A stretch of 63,651 nt of DNA, the filler included, from Psammoneis japonica (taxonomy: Eukaryota), in assembly GCA_008632985.1 (NCBI GenBank). It is 4 parts of 4 records of this genome, joined end to end, with 100 filler letters (N's around TTAATTAATTAA, not from the genome) between each part and the next. Parts side by side here need not be neighbours in the genome. Positions count along the whole stretch, not along the records: positions 1 to 17,003 come from QPGO01000480.1; positions 17,104 to 33,808 come from QPGO01000482.1; 2 more parts are not named here. The stretch is one strand, 5' to 3'. Positions 1-41,329 of this stretch are shown one piece after another. Within the stretch, counting starts at the first letter, position 1. Each line of letters opens with the position of its first letter. The translations under genes and the position numbers were made by a program. The notes beneath the pieces are model-generated. The model worked only from the letters and a program-made list of their open reading frames with translations, was not told the origin of the DNA and searched no databases.

Positions 1-1125
1 GAGGAAACACACGACAACAACGACAATGATGATGACGACAAAGATGGAGATCACACCCCTGACAAAGACGGAGATGGCTCACCCCCTCAAGATGAAGAAC
101 AAAATCATTCAGATGAGGGGGGAGAGGGGGGCAACAGCCAGCCACCAGATGACAAAGTGACTTCTGACAGAGATGGAATGGCAGAGGAGAACGACCAGCA
201 ACAGGGGGGGCAAGGAAATGACAAAGCAGATGAAGAGGAACCGTCCGCTGCAAACCCTGAGCAACAGGTGGAAGAGGACAACCAAAACATGGATGTGGCT
301 TGGCAGAGTGATGCAGATTCGAATGATGAGCCCCTTCCAAGCGGGAGTGACAGCGACAGCAGTTGCTCCCTCCTGAATCAAAGCCAGCAAGTGACGGGCT
401 CCAGTCCCAGGTGGGACTTTTTGTGACATTTGCCGCGCAGAATTCTGCGCGCAAGCTCTGCAGTTTGCACTCTGGTTGATGGATGTGTTTGTCTTTGACA
501 CAAAATGAATGGCTGAGTTTGCAGCACATGTGTCTCTCTTCGCACTTGAAGTTTTGGACAACACGCCTGCCCCACGCCATTCTCAAGACACTCGAGAATG
601 GCGCAGAAGAAAAAAATGTCAAAAGTTGCTGAGTGGATTGCCTGCTGTTTGCACTGTGAAATGATGCGATTCAAAAAACTGTCGATGTCACAGTTCAGCA
701 GCACGAGGTCCCACCTTGACCCTGGAATGCATCAAGTGCCGCGTTCCGCTGCAAGGAAAAAATGGTGGAGAATGGATGTTGTCTCCTCATCCTCTGAATC
801 ATCCTCTGAATCGGAGATTGGCGCATCAGATGATGACGACCCTTCAAGTGCTGTGGCTGCTGCCAAAGTTTCAGCCAAGATGAAAACCCTGTCAAAAGTG
901 TCTGAACCACAAAACCAGAATGTGAGGAAAAGAGTTGTTCAAGCAACTCCGGATCGTGAGACAAAAATGGATGCAAGGAAACGCAGGGCGGTGGCGCAGG
1001 CCAAAAAGGTGGAAAAAAAGGAACAGGCAAGGAGGAAGAGAATTGAGGCAGACAAGAAAAGGGGGGGAAGGCGGCGGCAAGAGCAAAGGCAATGGAGGCG
1101 GCAAGAAAGGAAAAGGAAAAAATGA
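1..1125 (+). pseudogene. Acidic/charged low-complexity coding-like region split by a MITE, function unknown
   Basis: D/E/Q-rich frame (...SCSLLNQSQQV) before 393 resumes as QVPRSAARKK...SSSSESSSE after 733 across an AAGT duplication; no recognisable domain. Confidence 0.3.
393..733 (+). mobile_element. MITE family A copy 1 (~25-bp imperfect TIRs, 4-bp TSD)
   Basis: Left end GACGGGCTCCAGTCCCAGGTGGGAC, right end GTCCCACCTTGACCCTGGAATGCATC; AAGT at 389-392 and 734-737; homologous to 31859-32247 and 40999-41324. Confidence 0.85.
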
Positions 1126-4464: not shown

Positions 4465-7400
4465 TCATTTGTTGTCGCTGGGGCGTGGATGGAGGCCCTT
4501 GTCCTTGGCACCTTGAAGATGACGAAGAATGCGCTTCACTGCAATGGCATGAGAGTGTTCAGGAGCACAGGAGAAGCGAGCGGCTTGATGGGTGGTGCGC
4601 GTGATGTCGGGACGGGAGTTTGCCGACAAGTGCACGAGCATCCCGACAACAGATCGGCAATCCCATGGTTTGGCAAAATCGGCTCCCTCTGAATCAGCAT
4701 GGCACGGAGAAGCAGTGCAAGGCATGGGAGAAGGACGACAATCTTCCATGCCAGCAGCTTTGAGGACCTTGTCGGTCAGACCTGGTTGAGTCAGTGGGAA
4801 CTCCTTGGGTCCGGTCTTGCGAATCTTGACACCTGGGAAGTTGCCAACTTCTCCTTCATTACGAAGCTCGAAAATGTGACGTTGTTCTTCCTTTTGAATT
4901 CCTGGAGCGGCAATCTCGCATTCCAGAAGGTCTCTGTCAGCACCAGCGAGGATGGCATCGTCGACGTGTGCGGCACAAATCATGCCATCCTTGAAGAACA
5001 GACATGGATCTGCAGCTGACTGAATCCACCCTCGTTCAAGTGATCCTTCGCGGAGCTTTTCGTGGAAGCATTTCGGGGCTTGTTTCAACCCATGGAGCGT
5101 CTTGAGCAGCTTGAGAACCATGTTCGCACCTGAAGAGTGACCAAAGCACTTGGGAGGTTCGACACAAACGTCTTCAGCAATGTCAGCTTGTGCAAACGCA
5201 TTTGTGCAGTCAACTTGACGAGCTTTCCACCCTTCTTGCAATGCAGCACTCAACAGCAAACGAGCAGTCGACCACTGGACCACTGGAGCGCAAGTCTCGA
5301 AGTGGTTGACTCCCTCTTGCTGCAAATCGCCACGACAACAAAATCGAGCCTTGAATTTCAGCGGAGCACCGTCGGGCAAGCGTTTCAACTTAAATGCCCA
5401 TGTTGATTTCAACACATTCATGGATGAATCGCGCTTGACAAATTTCCAAGTTTTACGATGAACAAGCGCGGCCACTTCGGTCTTCATGGCCTCGACACAT
5501 TGCTCGGCGAATTCGCCCGTGAGAGCTTCTCGCATGTTCGGCGCATCGTCATTCTTCTTGGCCTTTGTAGCGCAGACACGAGGGTCTTGAATGTCCAATT
5601 GTCCACTGTCACAGCAGGTCTGGATCTGAGCAAGACAGGTGAGCTGGGAATGGTGTCCTCCAGCATCCAATGGCTCGACTGAGGCCAAACAGACTTCGTT
5701 GGCAAAACGAGTTTTAGCTTGCTTGCCTTTGTTTGATCTTTGTGAGTGACGCACATTCTGCTCAGTCGTGGATGGGACTGGAACATCAGGAGCCGGGACT
5801 GGGATGTCCGATGACTCCGGGCCAGATTGAGGTGGCGGACGTACGAGAGGCGGTGCATGACCAACTTCAGAATCGCTCGTTGATGGATTGGGGTTTTGTG
5901 GTGGCTGCGATGGCGGTTCCTGTGGTGGCGCCAATGGCAAGTCGTCTGTGTTTGATGGTGTGGACACATCAGGACGTGCAGATGGTGGCGGTTCGATGAC
6001 TGGAGCGACAGGCTTCGAAGACTTTGTAGCAGCAGGCTGTTGTTGACGTGCATTCCTGACAAGATGCTCGCGTTCTTCATGTCGCCATTTCTGCTCGAGT
6101 TCTGCAGGAGCAAGCCAATCGTCTTGGAGGAACAATTGTTTGTTGCTTGAATCCAGTGGCATCTGGATGACACTCTCCAAACAGAGCTCTTCCCAGTGAT
6201 CAGGTGGCTCGCTCTCCCTCTCAATTGATGCGACCGTGGCAAAGAGATCGTCGAATGCCACATGATGCTGAGGAGCAATGGACCCGGCACTCAAGTTCAG
6301 GACCAGTGGAACCTCGCCAGCGTGAACCAAGCTGAGGCCGAGAAAAACACCACGCCGTGATCGTGGTTGCCAACGCGGCAATTTCTGTCCTTGCTGCAAC
6401 TTGGGATCCAAGACGTAGACAGGACACCCCCAAGCATGTAAATTGAGCAAACAGTGGCGTGGGATGGTGGATCCGGTGAAAATGTCGGCAGGACAAAGTC
6501 CATTTGATCCCGGAGTGTTGTTGTAAATGTGGGCGGCACAGTTGACCGCCATGGGCCACAAGGAGCTGTCAATGCCACCACGCCAATGGATGGACACGTG
6601 GAGGATCATGGCTTGCGCCACATTGGACACAGAACGAATGGACCGCTCCGCAACGCCATTCTGGTGATGGGCATTTGTTCCACAATGGTGGATGCGTTGC
6701 TGAGATTTGCGGACATGGGCAACAAACTTGTTGGCCTTGAAAGCACCATTGTCGGCAAGGTGCTCCTGCACGATGATGCCGTGACCCAGAGCCATCTGCT
6801 CACAACCTTGTTTTGCCCGCATCGTCTCAACTGCAGAGAAACCAACTTGATGCTCAACGTGTGTGAACCCAGAGGCATGATCGACGAAAATGCAGCCGCC
6901 AACACACTGCTGGGAGGGGGGTTTGCCACAGGAATCACAGGTGCAACCCTCAGCGAGGATGGCATCGTCGACGTGTGCGGCACAAATCATGCCATCCTTG
7001 AAGAACAGACATGGATCTGCAGCTGACTGAATCCACCCTCGTTCAAGTGATCCTTCGCGGAGCTTTTCGTGGAAGCATTTCGGGGCTTGTTTCAACCCAT
7101 GGAGCGTCTTGAGCAGCTTGAGAACCATGTTCGCACCTGAAGAGTGACCAAAGCACTTGGGAGGTTCGACACAAACGTCTTCAGCAATGTCAGCTTGTGC
7201 AAACGCATTTGTGCAGTCAACTTGACGAGCTTTCCACCCTTCTTGCAATGCAGCACTCAACAGCAAACGAGCAGTCGACCACTGGACCACTGGAGCGCAA
7301 GTCTCGAAGTGGTTGACTCCCTCTTGCTGCAAATCGCCACGACAACAAAATCGAGCCTTGAATTTCAGCGGAGCACCGTCGGGCAAGCGTTTCAACTTAA

Positions 7401-9640
7401 ATGCCCATGTTGATTTCAACACATTCATGGATGAATCGCGCTTGACAAATTTCCAAGTTTTACGATGAACAAGCGCGGCCACTTCGGTCTTCATGGCCTC
7501 GACACATTGCTCGGCGAATTCGCCCGTGAGAGCTTCTCGCATGTTTGGCGCATCGTCATTCTTCTTGGCCTTTGTAGCGCAGACACGAGGGTCTTGAATG
7601 TCCAATTGTCCACTGTCACAGCAGGTCTGGATCTGAGCAAGACAGGTGAGCTGGGAATGGTGTCCTCCAGCATCCAATGGCTCGACTGAGGCCAAACAGA
7701 CTTCGTTGGCAAAACGAGTTTTAGCTTGCTTGCCTTTGTTTGATCTTTGTGAGTGACGCACATTCTGCTCAGTCGTGGATGGGACTGGAACATCAGGAGC
7801 CGGGACTGGGATGTCCGATGACTCCGGGCCAGATTGAGGTGGCGGACGTACGAGAGGCGGTGCATGACCAACTTCAGAATCGCTCGTTGATGGATTGGGG
7901 TTTTGTGGTGGCTGCGATGGCGGTTCCTGTGGTGGCGCCAATGGCAAGTCGTCTGTGTTTGATGGTGTGGACACATCAGGACGTGCAGATGGTGGCGGTT
8001 CGATGACTGGAGCGACAGGCTTCGAAGACTTTGTAGCAGCAGGCTGTTGTTGACGTGCATTCCTGACAAGATGCTCGCGTTCTTCATGTCGCCATTTCTG
8101 CTCGAGTTCTGCAGGAGCAAGCCAATCGTCTTGGAGGAACAATTGTTTGTTGCTTGAATCCAGTGGCATCTGGATGACACTCTCCAAACAGAGCTCTTCC
8201 CAGTGATCAGGTGGCTCGCTCTCCCTCTCAATTGATGCGACCGTGGCAAAGAGATCGTCGAATGCCACATGATGCTGAGGAGCAATGGACCCGGCACTCA
8301 AGTTCAGGACCAGTGGAACCTCGCCAGCGTGAACCAAGCTGAGGCCGAGAAAAACACCACGCCGTGATCGTGGTTGCCAACGCGGCAATTTCTGTCCTTG
8401 CTGCAACTTGGGATCCAAGACGTAGACAGGACACCCCCAAGCATGTAAATTGAGCAAACAGTGGCGTGGGATGGTGGATCCGGTGAAAATGTCGGCAGGA
8501 CAAAGTCCATTTGATCCCGGAGTGTTGTTGTAAATGTGGGCGGCACAGTTGACCGCCATGGGCCACAAGGAGCTGTCAATGCCACCACGCCAATGGATGG
8601 ACACGTGGAGGATCATGGCTTGCGCCACATTGGACACAGAACGAATGGACCGCTCCGCAACGCCATTCTGGTGATGGGCATTTGTTCCACAATGGTGGAT
8701 GCGTTGCTGAGATTTGCGGACATGGGCAACAAACTTGTTGGCCTTGAAAGCACCATTGTCGGCAAGGTGCTCCTGCACGATGATGCCGTGACCCAGAGCC
8801 ATCTGCTCACAACCTTGTTTTGCCCGCATCGTCTCAACTGCAGAGAAACCAACTTGATGCTCAACGTGTGTGAACCCAGAGGCATGATCGACGAAAATGC
8901 AGCCGCCAACACACTGCTGGGAGGGGGGTTTGCCACAGGAATCACAGGTGCGACCCTTCAGATGCGACTCGAAGTGATCAATGCTCATGGACTGACCTGG
9001 ATGGAGATGACCAGCCTTGAGTGCACCATCGCGTTCGGGGACAGCAGGACGGCGGTGAGCCTTGGCATGCTCGCAGGCATCACATTTGGGGATGTCACAC
9101 TTGGAAGCAGACGCGAACTTGAGAGCGGTGAAAGGAGGCCGGCGGAGAAGAGCTTGGATGCGTGGAAAATTGAGATGCCCAAACCGAGCATGTGTGTCCA
9201 CGAGCAGCTTCTGCCCAGAGGACAGATTTAGATTGTCAGGGTCAGCAATGGTGCTCAAATTGACCTGAGGAGCAAACACAGTGCCGCGAGACGTGTGACC
9301 AACCGGCAAGTTTGAGCGCTCATCGTGTGGAACTTGGATCTCGGGTGTGCCGTAAAAACAAATCTTGAAGATCTCACTGTCACCCCAAAAATGGCCTCGA
9401 ACACCTGCAGGATGAAAGAGACGTTGAGGGGACAGAAGGTGCACCTTGGAACGAGGGACATGACAGCAGCAAGTCTGGACATTGACGTTGCTGCCGTCGG
9501 CAGCCTGGAAGCACCAAGAGACAGTGCCAACGCCCTCAGCGGGAAGGCCGCCAGCCATCCCACCAAGCTTGAGAGGCTCAGACAGCAATTCAATCTCGCC
9601 ATCAAAGTCCTCCTCATCCGGAGAGATGGTGAGAAAGCAC
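4465..9640 (-). pseudogene. Copia pol (integrase-RT) with in-frame 2007-bp internal duplication and mutated catalytic motifs
   Basis: ORF 4465..9858; IN-RT block occurs twice; I count only 6 Tyr in 1797 aa; HVDD instead of YVDD. Confidence 0.85.
4944..8957. repeat. Tandem 2007-bp duplication (4944-6950 / 6951-8957)
   Basis: CAGCGAGGATGGCATCGTCG restarts at 6951; ORF track repeats with a 2007 offset (5137/7144, 5484/7491). Confidence 0.95.
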
Positions 9641-12610
9641 CAGTGTTGAAGACGACCTCCAGTGACAACTGCCCGATGGACATGAGAATGGCAGGGTCCC
9701 CAGCCAGGCGAGACAGTTGGGTGGCTCCAGTGAGAGCCTGAACAGCAGCTGCGGCAGGTTGTCCAATAGAAGCAGGGGACGCACCAGCAGCTTGAGCAGC
9801 CAGTGCTGCGACAGAAGGTTGGAACTCGGTGCAGTCGACCACATGGTGGGCTCGACACAACTCGGAGATCCCAAAGATGTCAGGACTGGAGAAGCCAGAC
9901 TCGCGAAAGGCAGCAGCATCAAAGAAGGACTCTTGAAAGACAGGTGGGTCCTCACAGGCATCAAAGCAGCAATCGAGCTCACAGGCCTTGATCAACTCGT
10001 GAAGCTTGAAAGGCAAGGTCGTCATGTCATGCGTTGCTCCCTCTGGCACCAAGACCTCACGCTGGAACTGCTTGATCTTCAGATGATGATGCTGCAGCAG
10101 GGTGCCAGGGGTCAAGACGACATGTTCGTCAAGAGCTTGAACAACCTCGTGGGTCTGAGAGCAGAGACGCTGCAAGGGAATGCCAGGATGGGGTGGGGCG
10201 CAGCCGAGACAGACGGAGAGCCAAAGCGCAATCGCACAGGAGATCACGCCCCAATGACGCAGATGACTGAAAAGAGCAGGCTTGCGCTTGAGACGGCGAT
10301 GGCGACACGAGGGCGGCGGCGGATCACCACCAGCACCCACCAGCCGTGGGATGCCTTCCCAAAGAAGAGCAGAGAACCAAAAGACTGGGATCTTGAGGAG
10401 GGGCCAGAGCCAGCAAGAAGTGGGCTGAGGTTCCACGTCAAGGACATTCGGAGCAGGCTCAGAGATCGCATCGTAGAACTCGTCATCAAGTGCAGGAGAC
10501 TCAACAGGAGGCGGTGGATCATCCAAGATGGAAGGCTCCGGTGGGGACATCGAAGCAGGAAAGAGGATGACCGAATCATCCCAATCCAAATTGTCGCAAG
10601 CATCACAGCAATTGCTGAAATCGTCAGCATCTTCTGGGCCAACCGTCTCAACCAAAATTGCACGCTGCTCCCTCTCAGCGGCAGGACTGGGAAGGACGGA
10701 GACTCGTGTGACGGGAGCAGTGTTGCCGGATGCATCCTTGACAGGACAGCAACAGAACCCGGTCCAGACTGGTTCCTCCTCTGAAACGGGGGGAGCATCA
10801 TCGTCGGACGACGGATCGGGCTTGGTGGACGTAGGATCGGCGGTGGTCTGAGCGGGTGGCCCAGCCGGCACGCCGGAATCGGGATCGGCCACGGAAGCAA
10901 GGTTGGCATCCGGCTGTTCCTTCTTGGGTGGCTTGTTGGTGTGGGCGGCATCCTTGTGACCAGCATGGAGGCCCTTGATGCCAGTGTGGCGGCACGTGCA
11001 CTTGGTGCAAAAGTGAGCAGTCGACCCACACTTGTTGACGACTGGCTGGTTGAGATCAGCCGGACGAGTGCAGCGATGGGGCTTGTTTGCCAACAGCTCC
11101 TTGAACTTTGCTTGTTTGGCCACAGGTGCATTCGCTGGAGCAACAGTGCTGGGAGGAGACGTGGAAGGAGGGGGGTGGAGCACCTGCTGGCGGTTGACCC
11201 TTGCGTTGTTGGCGGGCAAGCTTCTTCAGGCGCTGACGTTCCTCATGCTTGGGACACTTTTTGTCATTGGCCCAGGTGGTCTGGAGCACCACAAGCGTTG
11301 CAAGCTCCCTTGCGCTTGGTGTGGTTGCCCTGAGGGAGTTTGGCAGAGAGACCTGGCCAGCCCTTGTCGGCAACGAAGTTACGATGCCTCGTTTGAAGGA
11401 AGGTGATGTGCGCAGTCGGACCAAGAGTTCCGCAGTCCTTGTCCTTGGCAAGTGGCGCTGGGTCCGTCAAACGATGCTTGCGTTCCATGGCCGTCACCTT
11501 GTCCAACTGGGTGAAGATTGCTTGATTGAATGCTTTGCCAGAGGTCTTGGAGCACTTCCGAAGGAGATCGGACCCGAGAGAGATGGGGAGCGCGCGTCCT
11601 GTTTGCAGGATCTTGGTGAGGCGGAGAGCTTCGGTGGCAAACTCGGTGACATCCTCGCCAGCACAGGAGTCAAGCATCAAAGCCTTGAAGTCTTCAGCAG
11701 CTTGAGCGACATCATGCATGGCGGAGGCATTGCAAGTCTCGAGAGCCATCACAAAAATGATTTGCCCAGGGTGGCATCGGAAGAGGTTGCGATGACCGAA
11801 TTGAGTTTCAATCTTCTCACAGAATTGGTGAGTGACACGAGACTCGACGACAAGACGTGAAAGCTTGACATCATCGTGCTCATGTTTGTCGTGTGCCGAA
11901 TCGTCTGTCGCCTTGTTGGCGTGTTCGTCATGCTCCGCAATGAACCTCGTCGACGGCGAAGCTGTGGAGGTGAGTGAAGAGGTCAACGACCTTCTTGTCC
12001 AACTTCGTGATGAAAAAATTTTCCAATCCATGCTCATTCACTGACGTGCAGACTGCTTGAACGAAGTGTTCCTTGTTGAGCTCATTCGTCTTGCCGTTGG
12101 GAATCTCTGGGTTCCCGTCAAACTTGACGATGTCGGTTCCATCTCAGGCGTCTCGGAGATTGCGCTCTGTGTGAGGAAGAATCTTCTTGTCCCGAGACTG
12201 GTTGGCAGAGCGACAGGTGCGCTTGAGCTTGAGATGGCACTCATCATTCAGCGGTGATCCACCCATGTGGCGACCATGTTCCGGATGGATTCCGCCACAG
12301 ATCGGAGGTGGACGAGGTTGCTGAACATTGGAACGCAACGACTGTTGGTTGGAGCGTGACTGTTGAGCAGCAGCACCGGCAGACTGGTTCTGTTGAGCGG
12401 CGGCACCAGTGGACTGATTCTGTTGAGCGGCAGGACCAGTGGACTGGTTTTGTTGTGCCGTGGGAGGCGGCGGAGGCTGACCAGCAGGAGTCTTGGGCGG
12501 AGGAGGATTGTTCGTCATGGCAGAGACAACTTTTTGTGCAGCTGCAGCACCAAATGCACGCAGTCAACTCAACAACGGATCAATGGAACGAACTTTGAGT
12601 TGCAGAGCTT

Positions 12611-20497: not shown

Positions 20498-21608
20498 ATG
20501 ACGCCGCGACAACTTTTTCTTTTGTTTGCGGCATTCAGATGCGCTTTGTCTTTTTCCACGCTCTCACCTTCAGCGCCCAGAAGTATCAGCAGCAGCCGCG
20601 TGAAGAAGAATGAGCTCGTCATGAATTCTCAACAAAAAAGTTCACCCGAAACAGCTGAAGTTGACAAAACTGAGTCCCTTTTGATTCCTCTTTCGTTTGA
20701 TGAAATGATAAGAGAGGCAGCAAGTGCCATGGAAGATGCTTACGAGGCTGGAGTAACCCGTCAAATTGTTCGTGTTCTCTTACCGAGAGACCCCGACAAT
20801 GGTCAACTTGGACGCTTCTTTGAAAGCGATGTGGAAATCGATACGCGGCAACTTGTTTTGGCCCCGCCTGATGAGACGTGGCAGGGTGGCATCATGCAGC
20901 TCTATAGGGCCGCCGCGCCAACGGGCCAAGAGCTTCTCAGGTGAGCTTGAATTTTCTGTCTTTGCGTCTTCGACTGAGTGTTTGTACCTAAACCTCATAT
21001 CATTTTTCTCTACGCATCATTCATCGTTGCACAGAAAATACTCGAAAGATCTTGGTGGCCTGCCTCCTCGAATGGTCGAAGACCGTTCTGTGGATGAATC
21101 AGGTGTCGACGGGGTTGGGCTGTGGATGACCCAGAATGCCTCGCCCGCAGATGATGTTAGCTGCTTTGTTCAACCAACGCAGGAAACTGTTGACGCCATT
21201 GAGAGCATTTCAAATTCAGCTGGAAAGAGACTAGTCATGATGCTTAATCCACAGTGGCGTATCATTGATGACGCCTTGGACTCGGCATCGCGAGAAGATA
21301 GTCCGTTTGGAAAGTTCGCATCGTTCCTCGGCGGGAAAGGGAATTCTCTCAAACGACTTGATGACATGGGGTTTGCCAGTGTGTACACTCTGGAAGGTTA
21401 TGTGTGTAAGGGAGGCAATATAAGGCTTGTCAAGAGATTCGACTCTGATTGGGTTGTGTTTGCGGAAAATGACGCACAAACCGACTATGTGCGTCTGGGG
21501 AGCTCAAAGTCTCGTCCGATGTACCAAGATGTTGACAAAATGATGGACGAAAAGGGCATCAGTCTCAAGTACGCTCGCGATATTGGCCTTGCTCCGAAGT
21601 TGGAATAA
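20498..21608 (+). CDS. DUF1995-like plastid protein; exons 20498-20940 and 21035-21608
   Basis: Signal peptide with ALS-F motif; GT..AG intron restores the frame (R-KYSKDL); DETWQGGIMQLYR, DESGVDG and LNPQW motifs. Confidence 0.75.
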
Positions 21609-21873
21609 GCACCGACTTCACTTTCTGGATAGTATTGAAACAATTACATAGACAAGACGGTTTTTGAATTTGTGTGCTCTATTTTATACATGCGATCTGA
21701 ATAACTGCGGCGAAAACACATCCTTGTTCAAGGAACGCCAGACTTAGACAGGGAAAAGTTAGCCACGACTTTGCCCCTGGTACAAACGTTGGTGATGGAA
21801 AAACATAGAAGGCTCCCAACGTCCAGTAGCTGTACGATAGATTGAAACAGACATCATATCTATCGATACACAA

Positions 21874-23986
21874 TCACAAATCAACAGTATCCTCTGCGAG
21901 ATATTCTCGCATAGCTCCGTTCGGCAACCGCGGTGGCGGATTTGGTGGACCAGTTAAAACAAAAGTTGGATCAGATTTCCGCTGAGAACGACATATCTCG
22001 CAAACGGACGAGTTGCAGGTGTGCACGTCACGGGAACCATATGAGTCACTCAGTCCATCTCCATAACCATTCGCTGCTTCTCCTTGTCGGTGGCCCGTCC
22101 AGACAGATGCGATAGAATCTTCCTCGCCCAATACTTGTGCCTGGGGAGTAGTTGCCTCGGTCTCACTGTCACCTGCAATTTCCTTTGCAAGACTATCGTC
22201 ATCCAATGAGATGTGAGAGGTCTCTTCAGAGGCGCCTTTTCTCCTCTTCACAAACAAGAGGATAAGGACCACAAGAGCAACGGCTCCGCAGGAAATGAGC
22301 ACAATACCGAGCGCTCCTAAGCCGCCGTCATTTTTGTCATCTCCCTGTACCTCTTGCACCCCTGCAGCTCCCCCACCACCATCGTCAATAGCAATGTCAA
22401 CCCCGTCAACATCCAACAGACCAGGGACTTGCAACTGATTCCGTTCATTAGCCGTTTTGATCGCCCCTTCCACAATCGAGGGAAAATCGTCCGTCTCTGT
22501 GCCCGTGTAATACAGAGCTGTATCAGTCTCCGTGGCAATGCATTTGGCATCCGAGTCGGACTTGGCTGGCACGCACGAGCCTGTACGTACAAAAAATGTA
22601 GACGAAGCATTAGAAGAGTGTACATAAAGAGTGAGTCAGATTTTATCGTCGGACATAGCAATTCCCCGTACCTTGCGCTTCCTTCTCTGGAGTGGCAAAT
22701 ACAGTGTTCCAAATGGTTGTTTTGTCCTGCAACCTTCGCATGCTGGGGGTATCACATTCAGATATCAGCGGAGCTACATATTTCTGAAGCGCTTCTCGTA
22801 GCTCATCCACTACCGCATCAAAGCTAGCCCCATTCATAATGGTGAGATCCAAACCGACTTTCAACCTAAAAGTATCGCCTTCCCTTGAAGCCGTTCCAGC
22901 TTCAATCGCGGCGCAATCTACTGCGCGGCCCGATGTGACGGGCGCTGAAGGAGACGCACCGTCGTTTCCTGGCGTGCCGTCTCCCGGCTTTGGTGAAGCT
23001 CCCCCTCCATCTCCAGGGGAGGTTGAGGGGGGACCCCCACTAGGATTGCTGCCATCCTGCGGCGAAGACGAAGGACCACCACTAGGATTGCTGCCACCTT
23101 CCGGTGAAGATGAAGGACCACCACCAGCTCCTGGGGAGGGCGAAGGACCACCACTAGGATTGCTGCCGACTCCGGGCGAAGACGAAGGACCCCCACTAGG
23201 ATTGCTGCCGACTCCAGGCGAAGACGAAGGACCGCCACTAGGATTGCTGCCGACTCCTGGCGAGGTCGAAGGACCCCCACTGGGACTAGGATTGGTGCCG
23301 ACTCCAGGCGAAGATGGAGGACCCCCACTAGGATTGCTGCCGACTCCAGAGGAGGGCGAAGGACCACCACTGGAACTACTGTCCTCTCCCGGGGAAGGTG
23401 AGAGACCACCACTTGGAGTGTTGCCGTCACCCGGTGTGGGAGATGGAGCAACTTGGTCGGCTGGAGGTCCAGGTGGTGACGGAACGATCGGATTGACTGG
23501 TGCCGGTGCCCACGTATTCCCCTTTCCTTTTGATTTCTTGCCTTTGGTTTTACATTCCTTCGATTTTCTGAAAGACCGAGCAAACAAGCCGTGAGTGACC
23601 GTCGGAAAGGAGCAAGGAGCAACAGAGAAAGAACTACAGAATCTGTTTCAAATTCAGACTTACTTGCTATGTCCTTTGCCCTTTCCTGGATGTTTAGAGT
23701 CTTTGCTATCGCAGTCACTGCTTTTTTCCGTTCCTTTTCCTACCCCTTCCCCATCAGACGCGGTTCTAGCATCAAAAACATTTTGAACCTCCTCGTATCG
23801 AGTGTGGGGGCTGTCCTCAAGGGCTCTATTTTCCAGGGAAGAACGTATTCTCCCTCTGACTAGGCTGCCTTTTTCTGACTTAACTGCGATCGATGGTGAA
23901 GCAAGCATCATCAACAGTAACAGGCATTTTCGAACCCTGCCTTTGGAGGAAATTTGCCGATGCTGTTCCATCGTGAATATCAACAT
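21874..23986 (-). CDS. Single-pass cell-surface protein with G/P/S repeats; exons 23986-23664, 23567-22672, 22580-21874
   Basis: Two in-frame GT..AG introns; N-terminal hydrophobic stretch; RRLQ motif; TM segment followed by KRRK; cytosolic DVHTCNSSVCEIC and EDTVDL end, as I recall from diatom membrane proteins. Confidence 0.85.
23030..23385. repeat. Coding ~42-bp tandem repeat (GGPSSSPGVGSNPS units)
   Basis: CCACTAGGATTGCTGCC recurs at ~42-bp intervals. Confidence 0.9.
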
Positions 23987-24679
23987 GATATGACTGGTCC
24001 TGCCCTAGTCAGAAGTAACAATCGTCTGGTTGAAAGAACAAGCAAGCGTCAACGATAGAAACTATCGAGATATCAGTTCTTATAACAAGAAGAAGGGTGC
24101 AATGGTCGTGTCAATTGCATGCAATGGCAATGCAATGAAGTCCGATTTTGGTCGTCCTTTGTGAACACGACCAGTGAGTCGGTGATTGAATGAAGCCTTC
24201 AGCATCGAATGCTATATTTTCCGTTAATCGCCAAATTCTTCTCTAACAATGTACTTTTTTTCTAATTTGAAATATGTCATACGTGTACATACATAATTAA
24301 CGTTGAAAGGTATCTTTAAAACGCACATCGTGAATAAATTTTATTTATGAATAACATTTATAATTGAAAAGTACTATCAGATCTTTCTTCCGTTGAAAAT
24401 TTTGGAATTCCAAATGAGCAGTTAAATCGATCGGAATCGCCTTTCCATTTCCCCACACAGTTCTGCAACACGCCAAAAGCATGAGCTAGCCCTAGAGAGA
24501 GGGCCCTGGTTCTTGGAAAGATCCTCTGATGGCGGATTGCAGTTGTCTCAATTTATGGTCACGCATTTTTAAAGAATTAGAGCTAGCAACAGCGATGAGT
24601 CGCTGAATCATCACTTTCAACTTCTTCATTCTCGAAAGTAACATGCCTTATGTACCTACAATGAAACATCTACATGCAG

Positions 24680-25399
24680 TTAAGGTCCATTTTCCTCTTC
24701 GTCCAGCTCTTCAATCATTGGCGTTGATGTTTCTTCAATTTTTTCTTTTTGTCGTCGTTGCTTCTCCGCTCGGTCGGCTCTCCTTTGTCGTCGTTTCTCC
24801 AACTCTTTTTTCCCTCCATCCACATCCCACAACAGAGCACCGTCATTATCCATCTCTTCTTTACTTTCGTTCTTCAAGAGACGCCCAAACTCTTCTACAA
24901 ACAGAATGGTCTGGTCACGATCGATCTCGTCAGGAAACACCAAGTCCAAATCCTTGTAAGCCCACAAAAGCGCTCTTCTCCCCATGAAACGACTCGGTTT
25001 TTGATTCGATGCAACCAATCCATTCCACAGCTGGGAGACTATTCTTCGTTCCAAAGACTCGTCGTCTTGTTGGTCGAGTGCAAACGTGTACCGATTTATG
25101 GCTTTGAGCAAGACCCGGCAGCTCATGAGGGCGTGTTGAGAATTCATGACACACTTGACGTCACCATCAAAGGAGTTTTGTGCAAGAGATCGAGCAGATA
25201 TCAAACTGAGATATGACTTGACGGCAGAATCTATCGTTGGACGTTCCTTGGCAAGCGACTGCGACATGGCTTCCTCCGGACTTAAGGAGAACGACGACGT
25301 TGCCGCTGATGATATTGCTGACGTTGCTGCCAACTTTGACACAGCTTCTGTAGCTCTCTTCTGGAAGTCCGACATGTTGTCAGGTACACCGGTATCCAT
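24680..25399 (-). CDS. Hypothetical protein, 239 aa
   Basis: Clean ORF with normal composition including Tyr; head-to-head with ATP synthase alpha. Confidence 0.75.
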   Translation of the reverse strand: MDTGVPDNMSDFQKRATEAVSKLAATSAISSAATSSFSLSPEEAMSQSLAKERPTIDSAVKSYLSLISARSLAQNSFDGDVKCVMNSQHALMSCRVLLKAINRYTFALDQQDDESLERRIVSQLWNGLVASNQKPSRFMGRRALLWAYKDLDLVFPDEIDRDQTILFVEEFGRLLKNESKEEMDNDGALLWDVDGGKKELEKRRQRRADRAEKQRRQKEKIEETSTPMIEELDEEENGP

Positions 25400-25747
25400 T
25401 TTTTGTTCTGTCGATCCTTCTACAAGTTCAAAATGGTATCATAGAAGCAGAAGTACATGTAATAGCGTTCATCGCCACTGTCCACTCTGTTCGGTTGTTT
25501 TCTGCCATCTTCGATGTCCGTCCTTTTCCCGTTTATTTTCTCCCTCCATTGCAGTTGCAACGTCATCATGCGTTTTGCGCGCGTCACGCGCACATCGAGA
25601 GGCCCGGCCGCCGTCGTCCACGGGTCTCGTACTCAAATTGCATAAGATTTTACTGAGAGCGCTCTCGCGTAGGTTCTACGTGCCAATCATACGACGAGCG
25701 GTTTGTCAGTGGCGAGCGGCACATACCGATAAAAACACCGCATCATC

Positions 25748-27817
25748 ATGGCGTTGCGAACCGCCATTTCCAGCGTCGCAAGGCGAGTGGCTCTTGCCAC
25801 GGCTACTCAGGTATGTTTTAGGATCGTTGTTATTACAGATTGGCATTAGTTTGAACGGGATATTCGTAACGGTTGTGGTTTGACGACGGTCACGAGTGTC
25901 GGATCGGCGGTGTTCGGAATCCGTAACGTTCGTATCTTGTGCCGCGCGGACGGCTGCGGTGCGACTTGCCCTTTGTTTGCCTCGAGAGTCACTGCTCCTG
26001 TCTACAATGCATTTGCAGGCACACAACATAGTCTCCCGTTTTCATAAAGCTTGTCGGATAACGTGTTGCGGCTTGACGCGTCATGGTGACCGTTGCTTAT
26101 CCTCAAATCCTTCAAGATATATCGGTATTTTGTGGAATTCCGAATTCCCTGCCGATCGTTGTGCAGATCTCTGAAAAATTGCAGAGGAAAATGCTTCATT
26201 TTTCAGCTGATTATCTTACCCCGTTTCTTTCCTTTCTTAACACTACTTTAGGCCGCTCGTCGGGGAGCCATTGCCACTTCCACTCGTGGTATGGCAAGCC
26301 AAACGCTCGAGCTTTCAACTTATCTCGAGAGCAAGATCAGTGCTGCTGGCGCCGAAGACTCTGCAGCCAAGTATGCCGAAACCGGAGCCGTCATTTCCGT
26401 GGGAGATGGTATCGCTCGTGTGTATGGACTCTCGAATGTTCAGGCCGGAGAGATGGTTGTGTTTTCCTGCGGTCTCCGCGGTATGGCTCTCAACTTGGAA
26501 GAAGACAACGTGGGTGTTGTGATTTTCGGTGACGATCGTGATATTCTAGAGGGCGACACTGTCAAACGAACCGGTGCTATCGTCGACGTGCCTGTAGGAG
26601 AAGAACTTCTTGGTCGCGTTGTTGATGGTATTGGACAACCCATCGATGGAGGAGCATCGCTTGACAACTGCAAGCGTTCTCGTGCCGAAGTTAAGGCTCC
26701 CGGTATCATTCCCAGAGAATCCGTGTCAGAGCCCATGCTTACCGGACTCAAGGCTGTCGACGCTCTTATCCCCATTGGACGTGGACAGCGTGAGCTTATC
26801 ATTGGTGATCGTCAGACTGGTAAGACTGCTATTGCCATTGATACCATTATCAACCAGAAGACCAAGGACGATCCTCTTGCATGCATTTATGTTGGTGTTG
26901 GGCAGAAGAGGTCGACCATTGCGCAGCTTGTGGGACAGCTCGACGAGAAGGAGGCCATGGGCAACTGCATCATTGTCGCAGCCACAGCCTCTGACTCTGC
27001 TCCTCTGCAGTTCCTTGCCCCTTACACCGGTGCAGCTATGGGTGAATACTTCCGTGACAACGGCAAGCACGCCGTGATCTTTTACGATGATCTCTCAAAG
27101 CAAGCTGTCGCCTACCGTCAGATGTCTTTGCTTCTTCGTCGTCCTCCTGGTCGTGAGGCCTACCCTGGTGATGTGTTTTACCTTCACTCCCGTCTTTTGG
27201 AACGTGCCGCCAAGATGCACCGCAACACTGGAGGTGGATCCTTGACTGCGCTTCCAGTCATTGAGACCCAAGCTGGTGATGTGTCTGCCTACATTCCCAC
27301 CAATGTGATTTCCATTACCGATGGACAGATCTTTTTGGAGTCCGAGCTTTTCTACCAAGGTCAGCGTCCTGCTATTTCTGTCGGTTTGTCGGTGTCTCGT
27401 GTCGGATCTGCCGCCCAGTACAAGGCTACCAAGTCTGTTGCCGGTACGATGAAGCTCGAGCTTGCCCAGTACCGTGAGGTTGCAGCATTTGCCAAGTTCG
27501 GATCCGACCTTGATCCTGCCACCCAGCAGCAGCTCAACCGTGGTGTCCGTCTTTACGAACTTCTCAAGCAAGGACAGTACATGCCCTACGAACCCGAAGA
27601 AGTTGTGGCTTCCCTCTTCATCGGTGTCAAGGGATACTGTGATCGCATTGACGTTGAGCACGTGCAAGCCTTTGAGTCTGCCTTTTTGGAGCATGTCAAG
27701 GGTGCCCACAGCAAGGTCCTTAAGGAGATTGTTGATGCAGGATACGTCTTGACGGAATCGGCAGAGAAGGAGCTTCATGAGATCGCTGAGACCTTTACCA
27801 GCGGTTACTCTCCCTAA
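25748..27817 (+). CDS. ATP1: Mitochondrial F1 ATP synthase subunit alpha, nucleus-encoded; exons 25748-25810 and 26252-27817
   Basis: [10 protein letters not shown], Walker [30 protein letters not shown]; presequence [34 protein letters not shown] joined by a phase-0 GT..AG intron. Confidence 0.95.
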
Positions 27818-27987
27818 GTACACACTTTTGTAGATAATGTCGGCTCCAATCATTAGAAAGCTTTGATCAAATTGTGGTTGCTGAGTTACATTAAAGTTAG
27901 CTTTGTACATCGAGTGAAATCAGGCTCACTTTCCCACAGCGTGCTTATTGCAAACGCAACAGTTTACGTGAGTCCGAAGTCAAGATT

Positions 27988-28430
27988 TTAAAAGGTAAGA
28001 GTAGACAGCGGCTGGCAACGTCTTGCAGACCTGGAATACTGAAGGACCAGCTTCGTTCGTTGCCAATATACATCACCAACGACAGAGTGAAGGGACTCTT
28101 TGACCTTGTTTGCCAACGGCGCATAAGCGGTGTCACCCATTTGATTTCTTCGGACACACTCTTTAACAACCTAAATGTAGAGCAACGCGGTGCATGAGTT
28201 AGTTCCTTGGTTTGATTTCGCAGCTAGCCCGTCCGACACTGACAAAGAGGACAATGGCTTACCTTTTTAGCAACTTCGCGTAGGTACGGATCGTTACGTG
28301 CTAGATCATCAAACAGAATTTTGATAAAGATTACTAGCTCACGTCTTTCTGACCTACTCGAGACTTTGTTACAGTGTCTGTGTATCTGGTCCCGCTTTTT
28401 CTCTTCGACTCTGAAACAGTGTGCTGTCAT
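27988..28430 (-). CDS. Small diatom-type hypothetical protein (~116 aa); exons 28430-28263 and 28170-27988
   Basis: Phase-0 GTAAG..TAG intron joins ...VIFIKILF...REVAKK to VVKECVRRNQMGD...VGDVYWQR; resembles a diatom-specific family (from memory). Confidence 0.7.
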
Positions 28431-28908
28431 TGTGCTGAAAATATATTGTGGATGTTGTCTTCCTCGTCGTCTTCTATTCGTGAAAGTTTGGAGATTTTGA
28501 TTTTGGCAGATGGAATTGTGATGTTGTGAGTGCACTCCATACATTTTACGTGGGAAGCCACGACCCCGAGTCACACTTCTCGTTTTGGCGCTCTCACCTC
28601 TCACTGTTCGGATTGACCGTACCGGTACGACGTAGCGCGCTGGTACTGATTCTTCGTAGCCCGTCAGATTGACGCACGGCCGGTTCGGTTTCGCGGATCG
28701 CGCGGAACTCGACCGAACGCAGAAGATGACGTCAGTTGACACGATTATGAGAAGCCCAACACAATTAGGACCGTACCGTACTGTAGCAGAAGGCTTCTAG
28801 CTAGCTAAACAACTTCTCAAAATGGGCAATCTTTTTGAATACCCCAACAATAGGAAGAGAGTAAACCCAGGTCCAATGAGGTCATCGAGCTTTTGAGCAC
28901 GCTAAGGT

Positions 28909-28932
28909 AGAGAGAGAGAGAGAGAGAGAGAG
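28909..28932. repeat. (AG)n microsatellite
   Basis: Directly visible. Confidence 0.9.
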
Positions 28933-29092
28933 TTCCACTGTTGCATCTTGGATGCGATACCTAATCGATCCTTTTCTGCGAAATTGAAAAGCGGCGTTTT
29001 CGAATGATCAGCTAGCTACCTGCATCTTTGCTTTTAAAATTAAACAGTCATTTCATCTAGTGAGAGAACAAACGTTTCGAAAGAATGAGGTC

Positions 29093-30477
29093 TCAGTTTT
29101 TTCCGTCTTTGGCATCAGAATCGCTATCATCCTTGATTCCCACTGTTTCGAGATTCTTCTTTAAATCCGCTTTTTTCTCACGAAGCATCCACGTTGCCAG
29201 CTTGAGACGCTCTACGAGGTCATCTGTATCTAAAGCTTGAATCCTGTATGTTGCGTCTTCTTCCGGTAATAACTCTGTACAGAACGCGCTCCAAGAAACA
29301 GCCGTCAACTCCTGAGGCGTGCGCTCACTGTCGTTCTGTTCGGCGATACAATAGCCTATTGATCACATTAAAGCAGTATAATAAAAATGAATTTATCAGA
29401 TACAAAACAATGCTGGAAATCTTTAGCAAGCTTACTCACCCTGGGTATCAGTTGTCATTGCTACCTCGTAAGCCCGATGAAAACGAGCTCGGCGATCAAT
29501 ATCATCATTCTCAATGTCGTCGTCGTCGTCGTCGTCATGATAGAACTTATCCTCCTGTGAAAAAGATACGCGTCCTTCAGTTAGAAAACGAGTCGGGTCT
29601 CGTCTACACAGAACCATGAGGTACCCCAACACAATACTCACGAGCTTTGCAAGTTTGATTCGTCGCTTTATTTCTTGCGCTTTCTCATCATCCGAGTCCT
29701 TGGTAGCTTGTGCTAGTTGATGCTCCATACTTGAAAGCACCAACATGTAATTTTCAATATTGCTGGCGGCAAGGTTGGGTAGATCGAGGTTTGGTGGGAT
29801 TTTGTCCACAATTTCTGTGCAGACCGCCTTAATATATGGCTCCTGTTGTGTGACTTCCATCAGAGAGGCTCGACCAACTACACGAATAGTGACAAAAATA
29901 CCGAAATCTTCCACTCGATTGTATGCTTCCACCTCACATAATGGAACAGTCTGAATAACACCCGAGTCTGCCAGTAACCCCATTGCTACCACACCTTCAT
30001 GATTGTCCATGGTATCTTTGAATAACGAAATGAATCTACCAGTATGCCAGAACGCAATTGATATTCCAGAACAAAGAAGAAAAAAGAGATAGCCACATCT
30101 GCTGTCAGTACCTATCCTTCAGATTCATCTAATTCTGCACAAACAAAGGGCTCTCGTACAACCACTCCTACTCACCTTTCTTCGTATAATCTCAACTGCT
30201 TCGTTTCTCCCTGCAAAAGAACTTCGTGCCAAGGAAACGGGAGAATGCAAACTTCCTTTGGTGGCGCACTTTCTTCAACGCCCAAACGTCGGTCCTCTCC
30301 AGTGCCTGGAAAATCAAACACCAAATCTCTCCATTCTGGAATTCCATTCAGTTTCGTATTCTTACGACTGCTCGTGAGAACGACGCCCCGTCTGCCGCTC
30401 ACGACAAACGCCGCACAAAAACACCGGAAAGAAACCAACACCCCGAAACATGAAAACAGTATTCTCCGCTTTATCAT
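29093..30477 (-). CDS. LON peptidase N-terminal (substrate-binding) domain protein, plastid-targeted, multi-exon
   Basis: Signal peptide with CAA-F; ILPFPWHEVLLQGETKQLRLYEER/FISLF across intron 30175-30036; VTIRVVGR; ALDTDDLVERL. Confidence 0.8.
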
Positions 30478-31085
30478 TTTCTAAGTTAACGGATTATTCA
30501 AGAAACAAGTTGTTGCAACACGCAGATGATTGTAGCTGCAAAAAGATTCATTCCAACAAATTCTGACAATTTCCTTTCTTCGGCATCATCAATCAGAACA
30601 AACATCGCACATGCCGTACGGTCCACGCCACCTTTGCTCGTTCTTCGCTTCGTGGCGCAGAACGCAGAACGCAGAATCATCATCGGACGACAGCCAGAGC
30701 GTTTGGAGGTTCCCACAAGCAACGTCGCAACGTGACAAGATGCGCCACTCTCTCGAACGAACGAACGATCAAACTCTCTCTCTCTCTCGCTCCCTCTCTC
30801 TAACTCTCCAGGCCCTGCCGGCAGCTGCCACAGTGCAACTCGTTCAATCATGGGACATTGCTCACATGACCAACACTCACACACCCTTGTGCGAATTCCG
30901 TGCAAAAGAAAATTCTTCCTGTCTGCACACGCTGGTGCCTGGCGTGGAGGAGGGGGGTGCGTCCGTGCAACCACAGTTGTTGAATGACCCCAGTGACTGT
31001 TGTGTGTTCCTGACATCTCAGTGATGTCTTTTTTGTTGTTCTCAGAATCTGACATTTCAGAGGGGGGAGCACGGAGCACAAAACT

Positions 31086-33808
31086 TGACAGGATTTGAAC
31101 AAGATTTTGGTTTGTCACACATGGTCATGTGTGCTCTTAGTTCTGCGTGCGTCGCGCGATGTAGTTTGCTTTCGAGCCACAGAGCTCACAAGAACAATGA
31201 CAGCAGTGCCGACATCATGACACCAGTCTTTCGGCTCCTGTGACGGTTTCTGCACGGAGACTCATCTGCCATTTGGACAGCAGCAAGGAGTTGTTGTTTG
31301 CTTCCACCCAGTCATCTTCATTTTCTGTCAGGTTGACAATCTTGCTCTTTGTTGTCCATTGAGTGTTCATCATCGTCATCAAGAAATTTTGACGACATGC
31401 ACTGTTGGCGGTGGAAGCATGTGTCTGCCTTCTTCACTGCGCTGGTTGCTGGATTGAATCCACACGTTTGGATTTGTCCGACACCTCCCATCGTTGGATG
31501 CATTCATTCAACGGACATTTGTTTGGCCAGGAATTCCTGAATTCTCAGACATCCAAGATTCCGGATTCCTTGCAGTGGATCCTGCCAATGCATCCGCATG
31601 CGTTCACGTGCACACGACACAAATCCCTGACTCTGGCTCTGCTCTGCACATGCCAAGTCTACCGCCTCGCATCTGCGCCGGATTGCTGGTCTTCTGCAGT
31701 CCCACAAGGTCCACGAGGACAACTGTGAGAGGAAGCAATTCATGATCACAGCCTGCATTAGGGCAAGGGTGCATTTCCCACGCTTGTTCGTCCCTCCACA
31801 GCGCCAAATTTGGCCGGCCTGATCGGGTCATCCAACCGACATAAAATGAGAACGGTTCAATGGGTTCCAGTCCTGGGTGGGACTTTTTGTGACATTTGCC
31901 CCGTAGAATTCTACGTGCGAGCTCTGCAGTTCGTACTCTGGTTGATGGACACATTTATCTTCGACATAAAAAAAACGGCCAAGTTTGCAGCACATCCATC
32001 CATGTCGGCACTAGAAGTTTTGGACAACACGCCTGCCCTGCGCCATTCTTAAGACACTCGAGAATGGCGCAGAAGAAAAAAACATTAAAAGTTGGTCAAT
32101 GGATGGCCTGACAATTGCACCATAAAATCACACAAAATTTCGCCAAAATCACGTAGAAATGTGCGTGCGCGACATACAACGCGATTCAAAAAACTGTCGA
32201 TGTCACAGTTCAGCAGTGCGAGGTCCCACCTAGACCTGGAACGCGTCGTTCGGAGGTCTTGTCCACCTCTGGTTGGCTTGTCAGCAGGGGTTTTTAACCT
32301 GTTGCTCCACTCTCAAGCAACCCAAAGCATCGCCAGCTGTGGGCTCGGATGTGCCGGCACAACTCTGCGGACTGGGTGGGAAGCTTGGCACTTGACTGCG
32401 AACGGGACATCACAGCCCGGCGGCTTCTGACTCTTAAGACAGTCCAAGACATCAAGCCAAGATTCAAGTCAAGTTTCAAGTTGTTTCAAGCTCACCCTCC
32501 GACTCCAGCCAGTTCCGACATCCACCCAGTTGCAACATGGTTCTCACCAGGCAACAACAAATCAATGGCCTCGAGCACATTCTAGGCACTGTTCTGAATC
32601 AAGCCACAGACAGTCCATTGTGCTCCGCTCTCAACATTGATGGAGCCGATTTGCATCAGGACCTTTTCACTTTTACTCCAATGCAATTGGATTCCCTTGT
32701 GTTCAATGACAGAACCAATCAAATGCCTTTGCCATGTGGTTGTTGGCAATGACCCTCAATTGTTCACACAAGAGGAGTTCACCAACTGTCGTCTCAGTCC
32801 TGAGCATGCAGCGTCCCTCTCCATGGGTGCAGCACCATCTGCTCCCACTCCTGGCTTGTTGCCACCCAAACCATGTGATCCCGTGCATGACTTTAAACGA
32901 GGCATCAAACGTGACCCACTTGCCTTCGCGCTTCTCAAGTCCGACAAACGGTGGCACACGTGGCACACCTCCATCATTGCACAGGCCCACTCCCAAGACG
33001 TCACACGCATTCTTGACCCGACGCACAAGCCCTCTGCAGCTGAGGACAAGGCCCTGTTTGCTGAACAACAGAAGCACATGTTCACCACATTCGAACGGAT
33101 CTTGCAGAATGACAAAGGCAAGGCTCTTGTTCGTCAACATGTCGGCTCCTCTGATGCTCAAGCGGTGTGTCGTGACCTTTCCAAGTGTGCCCTTGCTTCT
33201 GCTTGCACATCCCTGGAGTCCTCGACCCTTCTCACGCACCTCGCCACTGCTCGCCTCGGTGATGGCACCTGGAAAGGTTCCACTCATGCCTTCATGCTCC
33301 ACTGGCAGGACCAGCTCTGCAAGCATGAAGCTCTTGTCCCGGGTGCGGACCATTTTTCTGCTGGCCAGAAATGTGTCATGCTTGAGAATGCCGCACATCC
33401 TGTCAAGGAACTCTGTTCGGTGAAGAATCAGGCCGATCAGTTCCGCATGCAGAATGGAAAGAGACTCTCTTACGAAGAGTGCTGTGGACTCCTGCTTTCT
33501 GCTGCAGCACAGCACGACAGCACGTTTGCCCCCAAGACGGCTCCTTGCGCTCCGCGCCGTGCCATCTACGAACATGACCTGGTCCCTGACGACCCTGATG
33601 ACGATGTGTTCTTTGACATCGACAGTGATGTTGATGTCATGCAAGCTCATGCTGTGCAAACTCGTGGCAATTCCCTCACCAGGGAACAATGGCGTTGCAT
33701 TCCGCCGACCACCAGCACATTTGGGACACCTCACCCCAGTCCACTGAGGCCATCATTCTTGGCTCGCGCACCACCCACACAGGCAACTGCCATGACTTGC
33801 TGGCAGTC
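31086..33808 (+). mobile_element. 5' part of a Copia element (LTR, leader, gag), cut by contig end; same family as 44800-50294
   Basis: LTR start TGACAGGATTTGAACAAG identical to 50168; gag DFKRGIKRDP...ARLGDGTWKGS closely matches 45030-45950. Confidence 0.88.
31859..32247 (+). mobile_element. MITE family A copy 2, nested in the Copia leader, retains many TpA
   Basis: Both TIRs present; TSD GTTC at 31855-31858 and 32248-32251. Confidence 0.88.
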
Positions 33809-41324: not shown

Positions 41325-41329
41325 AACTG

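Follow-up and report, generated by a model that had tools for sequence, protein, structure and literature searches.

Copies of a miniature DNA transposon in the Psammoneis japonica assembly carry evidence of a TpA-specific mutation process in repeat tracts

The closest described system is the TpA hypermutation of the chlorarachniophyte Bigelowiella natans, which targets giant-virus and virophage DNA integrated into the host genome (Mettrop et al., bioRxiv 10.64898/2026.01.13.699255). Mutation-accumulation lines of that alga carried 231 mutations in two integrated viral regions; 230 were A>G or T>C changes, each of them at a TpA, and the authors propose an ADAT2-like deaminase (10.64898/2026.01.13.699255). 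The B. natans genome also contains clusters that are poor in TpA and rich in CpA plus TpG, and reverse transcriptase and DDE domains are over-represented among its TpA-poor coding sequences (10.64898/2026.01.13.699255). The present analysis concerns a 63,651-nucleotide (nt) stretch, filler included, of the Psammoneis japonica assembly GCA_008632985.1 (hereafter the window), which contains six copies (A to F; Table 1) of a miniature inverted-repeat transposable element (MITE). The signature found on these copies and around them matches that of Bigelowiella, but it occurs in a different lineage, affects transposons and goes far deeper, and the MITE provides the cleanest argument for DNA as the substrate.

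As in B. natans, TpA is the site of the changes, which are A>G or T>C and occur on either strand, and foreign or repeat DNA is hit while host genes are spared and the rest of the genome appears normal. The two cases differ in several respects. The host here is probably a diatom, and the events are inferred from copies rather than observed in mutation-accumulation lines. Transposons, among them a non-autonomous DNA element, are affected here, and the depletion reaches an observed/expected ratio (O/E) of 0.0-0.1 over tens of kilobases (kb), compared with a Rho of 0.45 in the viral region of B. natans. CpG decay also proceeds alongside in the window as a second, separate process. In the accessible part of the B. 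natans preprint (10.64898/2026.01.13.699255), the words diatom, stramenopile and MITE each have 0 occurrences. A full-text literature search met the signature only in that preprint and returned no report of it for diatoms or MITEs.

Three other processes share some of these features. Repeat-induced point mutation (RIP), a process of Neurospora and other ascomycetes, changes C to T at CpA and creates TpA, and is usually recognized by TpA/ApT >0.89 and (CpA+TpG)/(ApC+GpT) <1.03. Like RIP, the process described here consists of dinucleotide-bound transitions limited to repeated DNA, with transposons ruined and genes left; unlike RIP, it destroys TpA while CpA and TpG accumulate, and the repeat part of the window lies outside both RIP thresholds (TpA/ApT 0.13; (CpA+TpG)/(ApC+GpT) 1.73). 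The deamination of 5-methylcytosine at CpG likewise turns a self-complementary dinucleotide into TG or CA on either strand of silenced repeats, and leaves the same CA-versus-TG pattern between copies, but it cannot remove TA. ADAR hyper-editing of double-stranded RNA, for which a 5' U is preferred, and APOBEC3 editing of retroviral cDNA are cases of deaminase hypermutation of selfish or viral nucleic acid, and their marks reach the genome via an RNA or reverse-transcription stage with one strand marked. The MITE, unlike these targets, has no RNA stage, and both strands are marked in the MITE copies as well as in a Copia-type retrotransposon of the same window.

The direction of change was read from a square formed by TA, CA, CG and TG, in which the sides are single transitions and the opposite corners, CA/TG versus TA/CG, provide a polarity test. 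If TA and CG decay into CA and TG, two copies may differ as CA versus TG and not as TA versus CG; if CA and TG are the source, the opposite is expected. The presence of CA-versus-TG sites and the lack of TA-versus-CG sites therefore constitute a test of direction that needs no outgroup. Copies A and B share 340 aligned positions with 55 differences, and 36 of their 42 transitions lie within the square: 7 TA singles (with TA always in B), 9 CG singles and 10 CA-versus-TG dinucleotides (20 letters), next to 6 other transitions and 13 transversions. Copies C and D, with 355 aligned positions and 66 differences, place 43 of 50 transitions in the square, namely 10 TA singles (TA in C at 9 and in D at 1), 13 CG singles and 10 CA-versus-TG dinucleotides, next to 7 other transitions and 16 transversions. 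Across these two independent pairs there are 20 CA-versus-TG dinucleotides and 0 TA-versus-CG dinucleotides (binomial 1.9e-6). Independent transitions would yield about 1.1 CA-versus-TG dinucleotides for A-B and about 1.5 for C-D, or about 2.5 together (Poisson P 2e-7 and 3e-6). A five-copy alignment gives the same picture, with TA and CG together in 0 of the 38 columns variable within the square and CA and TG together in 22 of 38; this alignment is weak centrally between subfamilies, and weight is therefore put on the pairs.

Decay at CpG accompanies the loss of TA and explains 9 to 13 differences per pair. An estimate from retained-CG counts attributes to it only about 1-2 of the 10 CA-versus-TG sites in each pair, so most of the others must derive from TA. 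On this evidence, a TA-specific, repeat-restricted DNA mutation process running from TA to CA or TG is very probably real. The loss of an ancestral TA to CA or TG had already been proposed in the first-pass annotation of this DNA, and it is borne out by the CA-versus-TG excess in two pairs, by the presence of TA in other genomic copies and by the tyrosine (Tyr) codons of the Copia element.

The individual sites follow this pattern. All of the A/B hexamer differences on which the earlier proposal was built (GTAGAA/GCAGAA, TCTACG/TCTGCG, GTACTC/GCACTC, TTTATC/TTTGTC, ACATAA/ACACAA and CTTAAG/CTCAAG, each with the TA in B) are present and aligned, as are the C/D differences TTTACA/TTTGCA and CGTAGA/CGCAGA, and the second pair behaves like the first, as had been stated. 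Nine of the 12 TAs of copy B align to copy A, where none is kept (7 read CA or TG, and 2 read TT); the other three lie in a stretch deleted from A. At sites where the sister copy retains TA, copy A reads CA 5 times and TG 2 times and copy D reads CA 4 times and TG 5 times, for a total of CA 9 and TG 7. Both outcomes occur in both copies, which means that both strands are marked. The idea that copy B represents the state before mutation does not hold, since the A-B counts imply that B itself has lost about two thirds of its ancestral TAs. The left-end site is CCCAGG in copy A but CCTGGG in copy B, in agreement with the first description. The partner ends were said to keep CTAGG, which is true, as the reverse complement, of four of the five copies having that end (B, D, E and F), while copy A reads CTTGA.

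A reversed process resembling RIP, in which C to T at CpA would turn CA and TG into TA, so that mutation would have affected the TA-rich copies B, C and E and left the TA-free copy A near the ancestral state, was weighed against these data. Pairwise differences alone give no direction, single-column parsimony on the five copies is indifferent, and at position 32013 the TA of copy B is the minority state, with CG making up 93% of the contig depth. Such a process, however, cannot yield CA in one copy and TG in another at one dinucleotide, where 20 such sites were seen. It also requires a 341-nt ancestor without any TA, and it would raise TA in the repeat tracts, in which the two dinucleotide ratios given above point the other way. 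Conserved Tyr codons of the Copia element read histidine (His) or cysteine (Cys), and not vice versa. This reading is scarcely credible.

The value of the MITE lies in its mode of movement. Copies were found by BLAST and a profile search of the window, and fall into two subfamilies, one of A, B and E (about 84% alike) and one of C and D (81% alike). They have common ends, GAYGGGTTCCAG..GGTGGGAC, in inverted orientation. The terminal inverted repeat (TIR) of copy B is 20 nt long and 85% complementary, and the inverted arms of copy D measure 29 nt at 83%, with a palindromic target site duplication (TSD) included in the call of the repeat tool. No inverted ends were found by that tool in copy A, although the common end sequence is visible in the alignment, and this TIR went undetected because the ends are eroded by TA and CG changes. 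Direct repeats of 4 bp surround all three complete copies (A, B and D). With a length of 341-397 nt, multiple copies and a longest stop-free run of 72 codons in copy B, the element is small, non-coding and repeated, and it is a MITE, i.e. a non-autonomous DNA transposon. Its TIRs, its 4-bp TSDs and the paralogous empty sites described below indicate that it moves as DNA. The first-pass annotation had argued that a non-coding DNA transposon excludes RNA editing coupled to retrotransposition as well as codon selection, and these structural features sustain that argument. Since the MITE passes through neither RNA nor reverse transcription and lacks codons, its copies set a DNA-level, context-specific mutator apart from RNA editing and selection, a distinction beyond the reach of retrotransposon data by themselves. 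The limits first given for the copies at 393-733, 31859-32247 and 61281-61677 are exact to the base, while the start of copy C lies at 38788 and not at 38790, and one of its ends is missing.

Table 1. Positions and dinucleotide content of the features discussed (TA and CG as observed/expected ratios; positions along the window)
Feature	Positions	Strand	Length (nt)	TA count (O/E)	CG O/E	TSD	Remarks
MITE copy A	393..733	+	341	0 (0.00)	0.63	AAGT 389-392/734-737	Fully mutated
MITE copy B	31859..32247	+	389	12 (0.44)	1.04	GTTC 31855-31858/32248-32251	Partly mutated
MITE copy E	40999..41330	+	332	10 (0.38)	0.44		5' end diverged or missing
MITE copy C	38788..39142	-	355	12 (0.40)	0.33		Second subfamily; one end missing
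MITE copy D	61281..61677	-	397	5 (0.19)		TGCA 61277-61280/61678-61681	Second subfamily
MITE fragment F	44704..44797	+	94	3 (0.56)			3' 94 nt only
Copia-type retrotransposon frame	4465..9879	-					1804 codons open; Tyr 0.3%, His 5.1%, Cys 4.3%
Gene island	19001..30500	.		(0.34-0.81)	~1		Spared by the TA-erasing process

The family was examined beyond the window by aligning contigs of one public sequencing run (X1) to 31700-32400, around copy B, at 80% likeness. A total of 2812 contigs were placed, and 371 of them are at least 99% like the window. Five contigs join 31854 to 32248 and skip 393 nt, with four letters fitting both sides. These paralogous empty sites indicate that the DNA around copy B is a repeat with insertion-free copies elsewhere, that the 389-nt limits are right and that the family is abundant. 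Two further runs (X2 and X3) placed 1 and 3 contigs and thus contain next to nothing of the stretch. The census sites were drawn from the 40 listed out of 102 variable places, and contig depth is not equal to copy number. Within these bounds, at least 8 sites with CA or TG in copy B read TA in other genomic copies, in 8-72% of the aligned depth (31944, 31950, 31952, 31997, 32009, 32163, 32196 and 32214), and two of them sit within the CACA of B that is read as TGTG by A. At the TTTATC of copy B, TTTGTC makes up 62% of the depth. The TA of copy B at 32012-13 (CTAGA) is read as CTCGA in 93% of the depth and is therefore probably not ancestral.

The Copia element provides an outgroup test within the same window. 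For this test, 828 residues of the Copia frame were searched against 1.84 billion representative proteins, and a query-anchored phmmer alignment was built from 140 of the best 150 relatives (Tyr at least 2%); the 10 left out have Tyr below 2%, four of them below 1.2%. In the 10 columns with Tyr in at least half of the 140 relatives, the Copia frame reads His 5 times, Cys 4 times and Tyr once, and the His and Cys codons are always CAY or TGY. Control residues are better preserved at such columns, with tryptophan kept in 10 of 11, His in 10 of 11 and phenylalanine in 12 of 18. The YxDD motif of the polymerase reads HVDD. These replacements indicate a change of TAY to CAY or TGY, with both strands affected to about the same extent.

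The possibility that elements avoid TA through selection, either because it is a nuclease target or a TA-specific insertion target or for the sake of RNA stability, can be judged from the same data. Most genomes contain less TA than expected, and there is selection against UpA in RNA that is expressed (PMC3829696). Against this, the MITE is non-coding, and the loss of 9 of 10 conserved Tyr residues by the Copia element, with the polymerase YxDD motif included, is damage rather than adaptation. The depletion moreover hits zero over kilobases and follows tract borders rather than genes. Selection is therefore an exceedingly improbable explanation.

The depletion of TA is regional along the window when measured in 500-nt blocks. 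The whole window has a G+C content of about 50%, a TA O/E of 0.21 and CA and TG O/E of about 1.5. Outside the gene island (Table 1), TA O/E is 0.00-0.3 in nearly all blocks and CG is often low too (O/E 0.0-0.7); the exception is the block at 17001, with a TA O/E of 0.51, of which 18% is N. The 51.6 kb of repeat tracts hold 372 TAs, compared with 431 in the island, which spans 11.5 kb. Measured against the island, the repeat tracts have a TA+CG deficit of 53.7 per kb and a CA+TG excess of 61.3 per kb, a dinucleotide balance that fits conversion.

The MITE copies also give some indication of timing. Copies B, C, E and F have a TA O/E of 0.4-0.56 within flanks at 0.00-0.33, and 8 of the 10 flanks are at or below 0.13. 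The flanks of copy E are at 0.08 and 0.09 for TA and at 0.04 and 0.00 for CG, and those of copy A have a TA O/E of 0.00 within 500 nt. The TA O/E of a copy tracks the value in the 500 nt flanking it on each side (Spearman 0.89, n=6, P 0.019). Because the depletion in copies B, C, E and F falls short of that around them, they probably were inserted after most of the local damage and have since been wearing in place at a locally set pace, as judged from six points. MITE copies can thus serve as an internal clock, with young copies visible as TA-richer spots in TA-free tracts.

Long-read assemblies are known to contain systematic miscalls at modified motifs, and a base modification at TpA in silenced DNA could lead a base-caller to write TG or CA where the real DNA has TA. 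In favor of such an assembly error, just 0.46 of the stretch's sampled words occur in public run X1. If A were modified on both strands, however, sites should resolve to CG as often as to TA, and TA versus CG was seen at 0 of 20. MITE copies in depleted tracts retain TA, and the contigs of run X1 include both TA and CA/TG forms, with many of them nearly identical to the window (see the census above). The two 2-kb tandem copies inside the Copia element carry the same CA and TG calls and are 99.85% alike. In another alga, the same signature consists of true de novo mutations detected by Illumina sequencing, as reported for B. natans (10.64898/2026.01.13.699255). An assembly error is accordingly very improbable.

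The process is best described as follows. The MITE family (about 340-400 nt, with a 4-bp TSD and no coding capacity) has inserted into repeat-rich tracts, in which a process acting at the DNA level converts 5'-TA-3' into TG or CA, an A:T to G:C transition that affects the A of the dinucleotide on either strand. It acts site by site and copy by copy, so that one ancestral TA becomes CA in one copy and TG in another, and it reaches saturation, with no TA remaining in copy A and its flanks, while the adjoining gene island is spared. CpG decay, the usual mark of cytosine methylation, takes place in the same tracts. The data above show the spectrum of this process, its direction, its action on an element that moves only as DNA, its use of both strands and its regional restriction. 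The best candidate for the agent is an adenine deaminase that acts on DNA and requires a 5' T, with A being converted to inosine and read as G; such an enzyme may be brought to the chromatin of silenced repeats to defend the genome, in line with the proposal made for B. natans. The deaminases of the wobble adenosine act on the A after U33 in tRNA and would be a ready source for the 5'-T requirement. By analogy with Bigelowiella, an adenine deaminase is a candidate whose chances appear evenly balanced, and the whole explanation, with both the process and the deaminase mechanism, is judged to be slightly on the probable side.

A different agent could produce the same real change from TA to CA or TG. 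Candidates include a modified thymine at TpA, such as 5-hydroxymethyluracil or base J, that mispairs with G, or a bias of repair or polymerase in heterochromatin. TA is its own reverse complement, so T>C on one strand looks the same as A>G on the other; A-side and T-side chemistry are therefore indistinguishable in these data, and thymine modification stays as a rival. Enzymes of the TET/JBP type are widespread in protists. On the other hand, 5-hydroxymethyluracil opposite A is not known as a strong mutagen. An agent other than a deaminase is considered rather unlikely, although less so than the assembly, selection and reversed-process explanations.

Neighbouring bases appear to influence which TAs survive. 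Relative to island density, the surviving TAs by 4-mer amount to 0.02 for ATAT, 0.04 for ATAC and GTAT, 0.47 for CTAA and 0.58 for TTAA. This suggests a recognition motif wider than TA alone, although island and repeat tracts differ in origin, which confounds the comparison. Given a self-complementary site, surviving TAs cannot separate the -2 neighbour of the target A from the +1 neighbour, and polarised sites are too few to do so.

Several observations weigh against the account given here. The census with B as reference yields 43 GC-to-AT and 42 AT-to-GC changes and hence no polarity by itself, a near-equality that fits B being mutated, and its depths are not copy numbers and cover only 40 of the 102 variable places. 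Two TAs of copy B lie opposite TT in A, which is a transversion. The retained TA counts of C and D predict about 3 CA-versus-TG sites under independent loss, and 10 were seen, so either sites differ strongly in mutability or the alignment adds some. The comparison is limited to six copies, and the correlation between copies and flanks is weaker at 1000 nt (0.71, P 0.11). The deaminase mechanism draws on analogy, and the 3' neighbours of the remaining TAs do not follow an ADAR pattern, ATAT being the most depleted 4-mer and TTAA the least.

If the proposed deaminase is correct, diatoms might, like Bigelowiella, possess a standing defence in which a DNA adenine deaminase requiring a 5' T is sent to silenced repeat chromatin and rewrites every TA there, including those of newly arrived DNA transposons; this is offered as a tentative possibility. 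Under such a defence, TA, Tyr codons and TAA and TAG stops would vanish, and terminal repeats would cease to match. If it were shared by descent between both lineages, it would represent an old defence of the stramenopile-alveolate-rhizarian (SAR) group, a counterpart of fungal RIP in which the chemistry is reversed. Should the enzyme prove to be a natural DNA adenine deaminase working on chromatin, it would be of relevance to base-editing research.

The process also has consequences for annotation. It removes two of the three stop codons and all Tyr codons, which creates long false frames, and it hides transposon ends from repeat finders. The window contains 56 reading frames of at least 200 codons, and these many long frames are attributable to a TA change that removes TAA and TAG and never creates a stop.

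The gene island encodes, without introns, an inorganic pyrophosphatase, a DUF1995 protein and the mitochondrial ATP synthase alpha subunit, the last with 3.8% Tyr. The protein-atlas cluster nearest to the pyrophosphatase is most frequent in Bacillariophyta (score 0.95), a lead that points to a diatom.

A metagenome scan for related MITEs gave 0 matches to the right-end pattern. The left-end pattern matched five loci (TA O/E 0.37-0.76), which were rejected as chance matches: the five-copy profile hit only the 27-nt pattern in two of the five and nothing in the other three. The scan thus yielded no relatives of the element. The flanks of copy B (31700-31858 and 32248-32400) are a high-copy repeat, and at least 7 sites there have CA or TG in the window where 62-97% of the depth has CG. 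This is ordinary CpG decay with a visible direction.

Within the Copia element, the part from integrase to polymerase is duplicated in tandem at 4944-8961, with a unit of 2007 nt. BLAST aligns the units at 99.85% over 2011 columns; 2 differences, both at CG, were found in 2010 aligned positions, and the CA and TG calls are identical. The identical calls imply that the duplication postdates the TA loss or is itself an assembly effect. Two of the best 150 Copia relatives, the proteins P0064 and P0113 (from an ENA assembly and an NCBI contig), have replaced Tyr by His or Cys in 9 of 10 conserved columns and in 8 of 9, respectively, and P0064 has zero Tyr. This pattern points to the same TA erasure in other Copia families in public data.

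Other repeats in the first part of the window are similarly depleted. A 1.4-kb unit repeated in tandem at 728-3523 begins inside the final bases of MITE copy A, and its units are 98.7% alike by BLAST with gaps counted and 99.6% alike by global alignment. They are TA-free bar one site, at which one unit has TAC and the other TGC. The repeat pairs within 1-17 kb (the 2.0-kb and 1.4-kb tandem pairs and three dispersed pairs) are nearly TA-free and differ mostly at CG-related sites, so they are uninformative on the direction of TA change. The most worn tract is 40501-44500, where CG O/E is 0.00-0.12 in most 500-nt blocks and TA O/E 0.00-0.13; inside it, the block at 41001, which contains MITE copy E, has a CG O/E of 0.31 and a TA O/E of 0.30. 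A single N is present at 1714. Longer runs of N occur as three pairs of 44 N with 12 letters between them (17004-17103, 33809-33908 and 50295-50394), and their regular spacing of about 16.5-16.8 kb looks like masking or scaffolding rather than biology.

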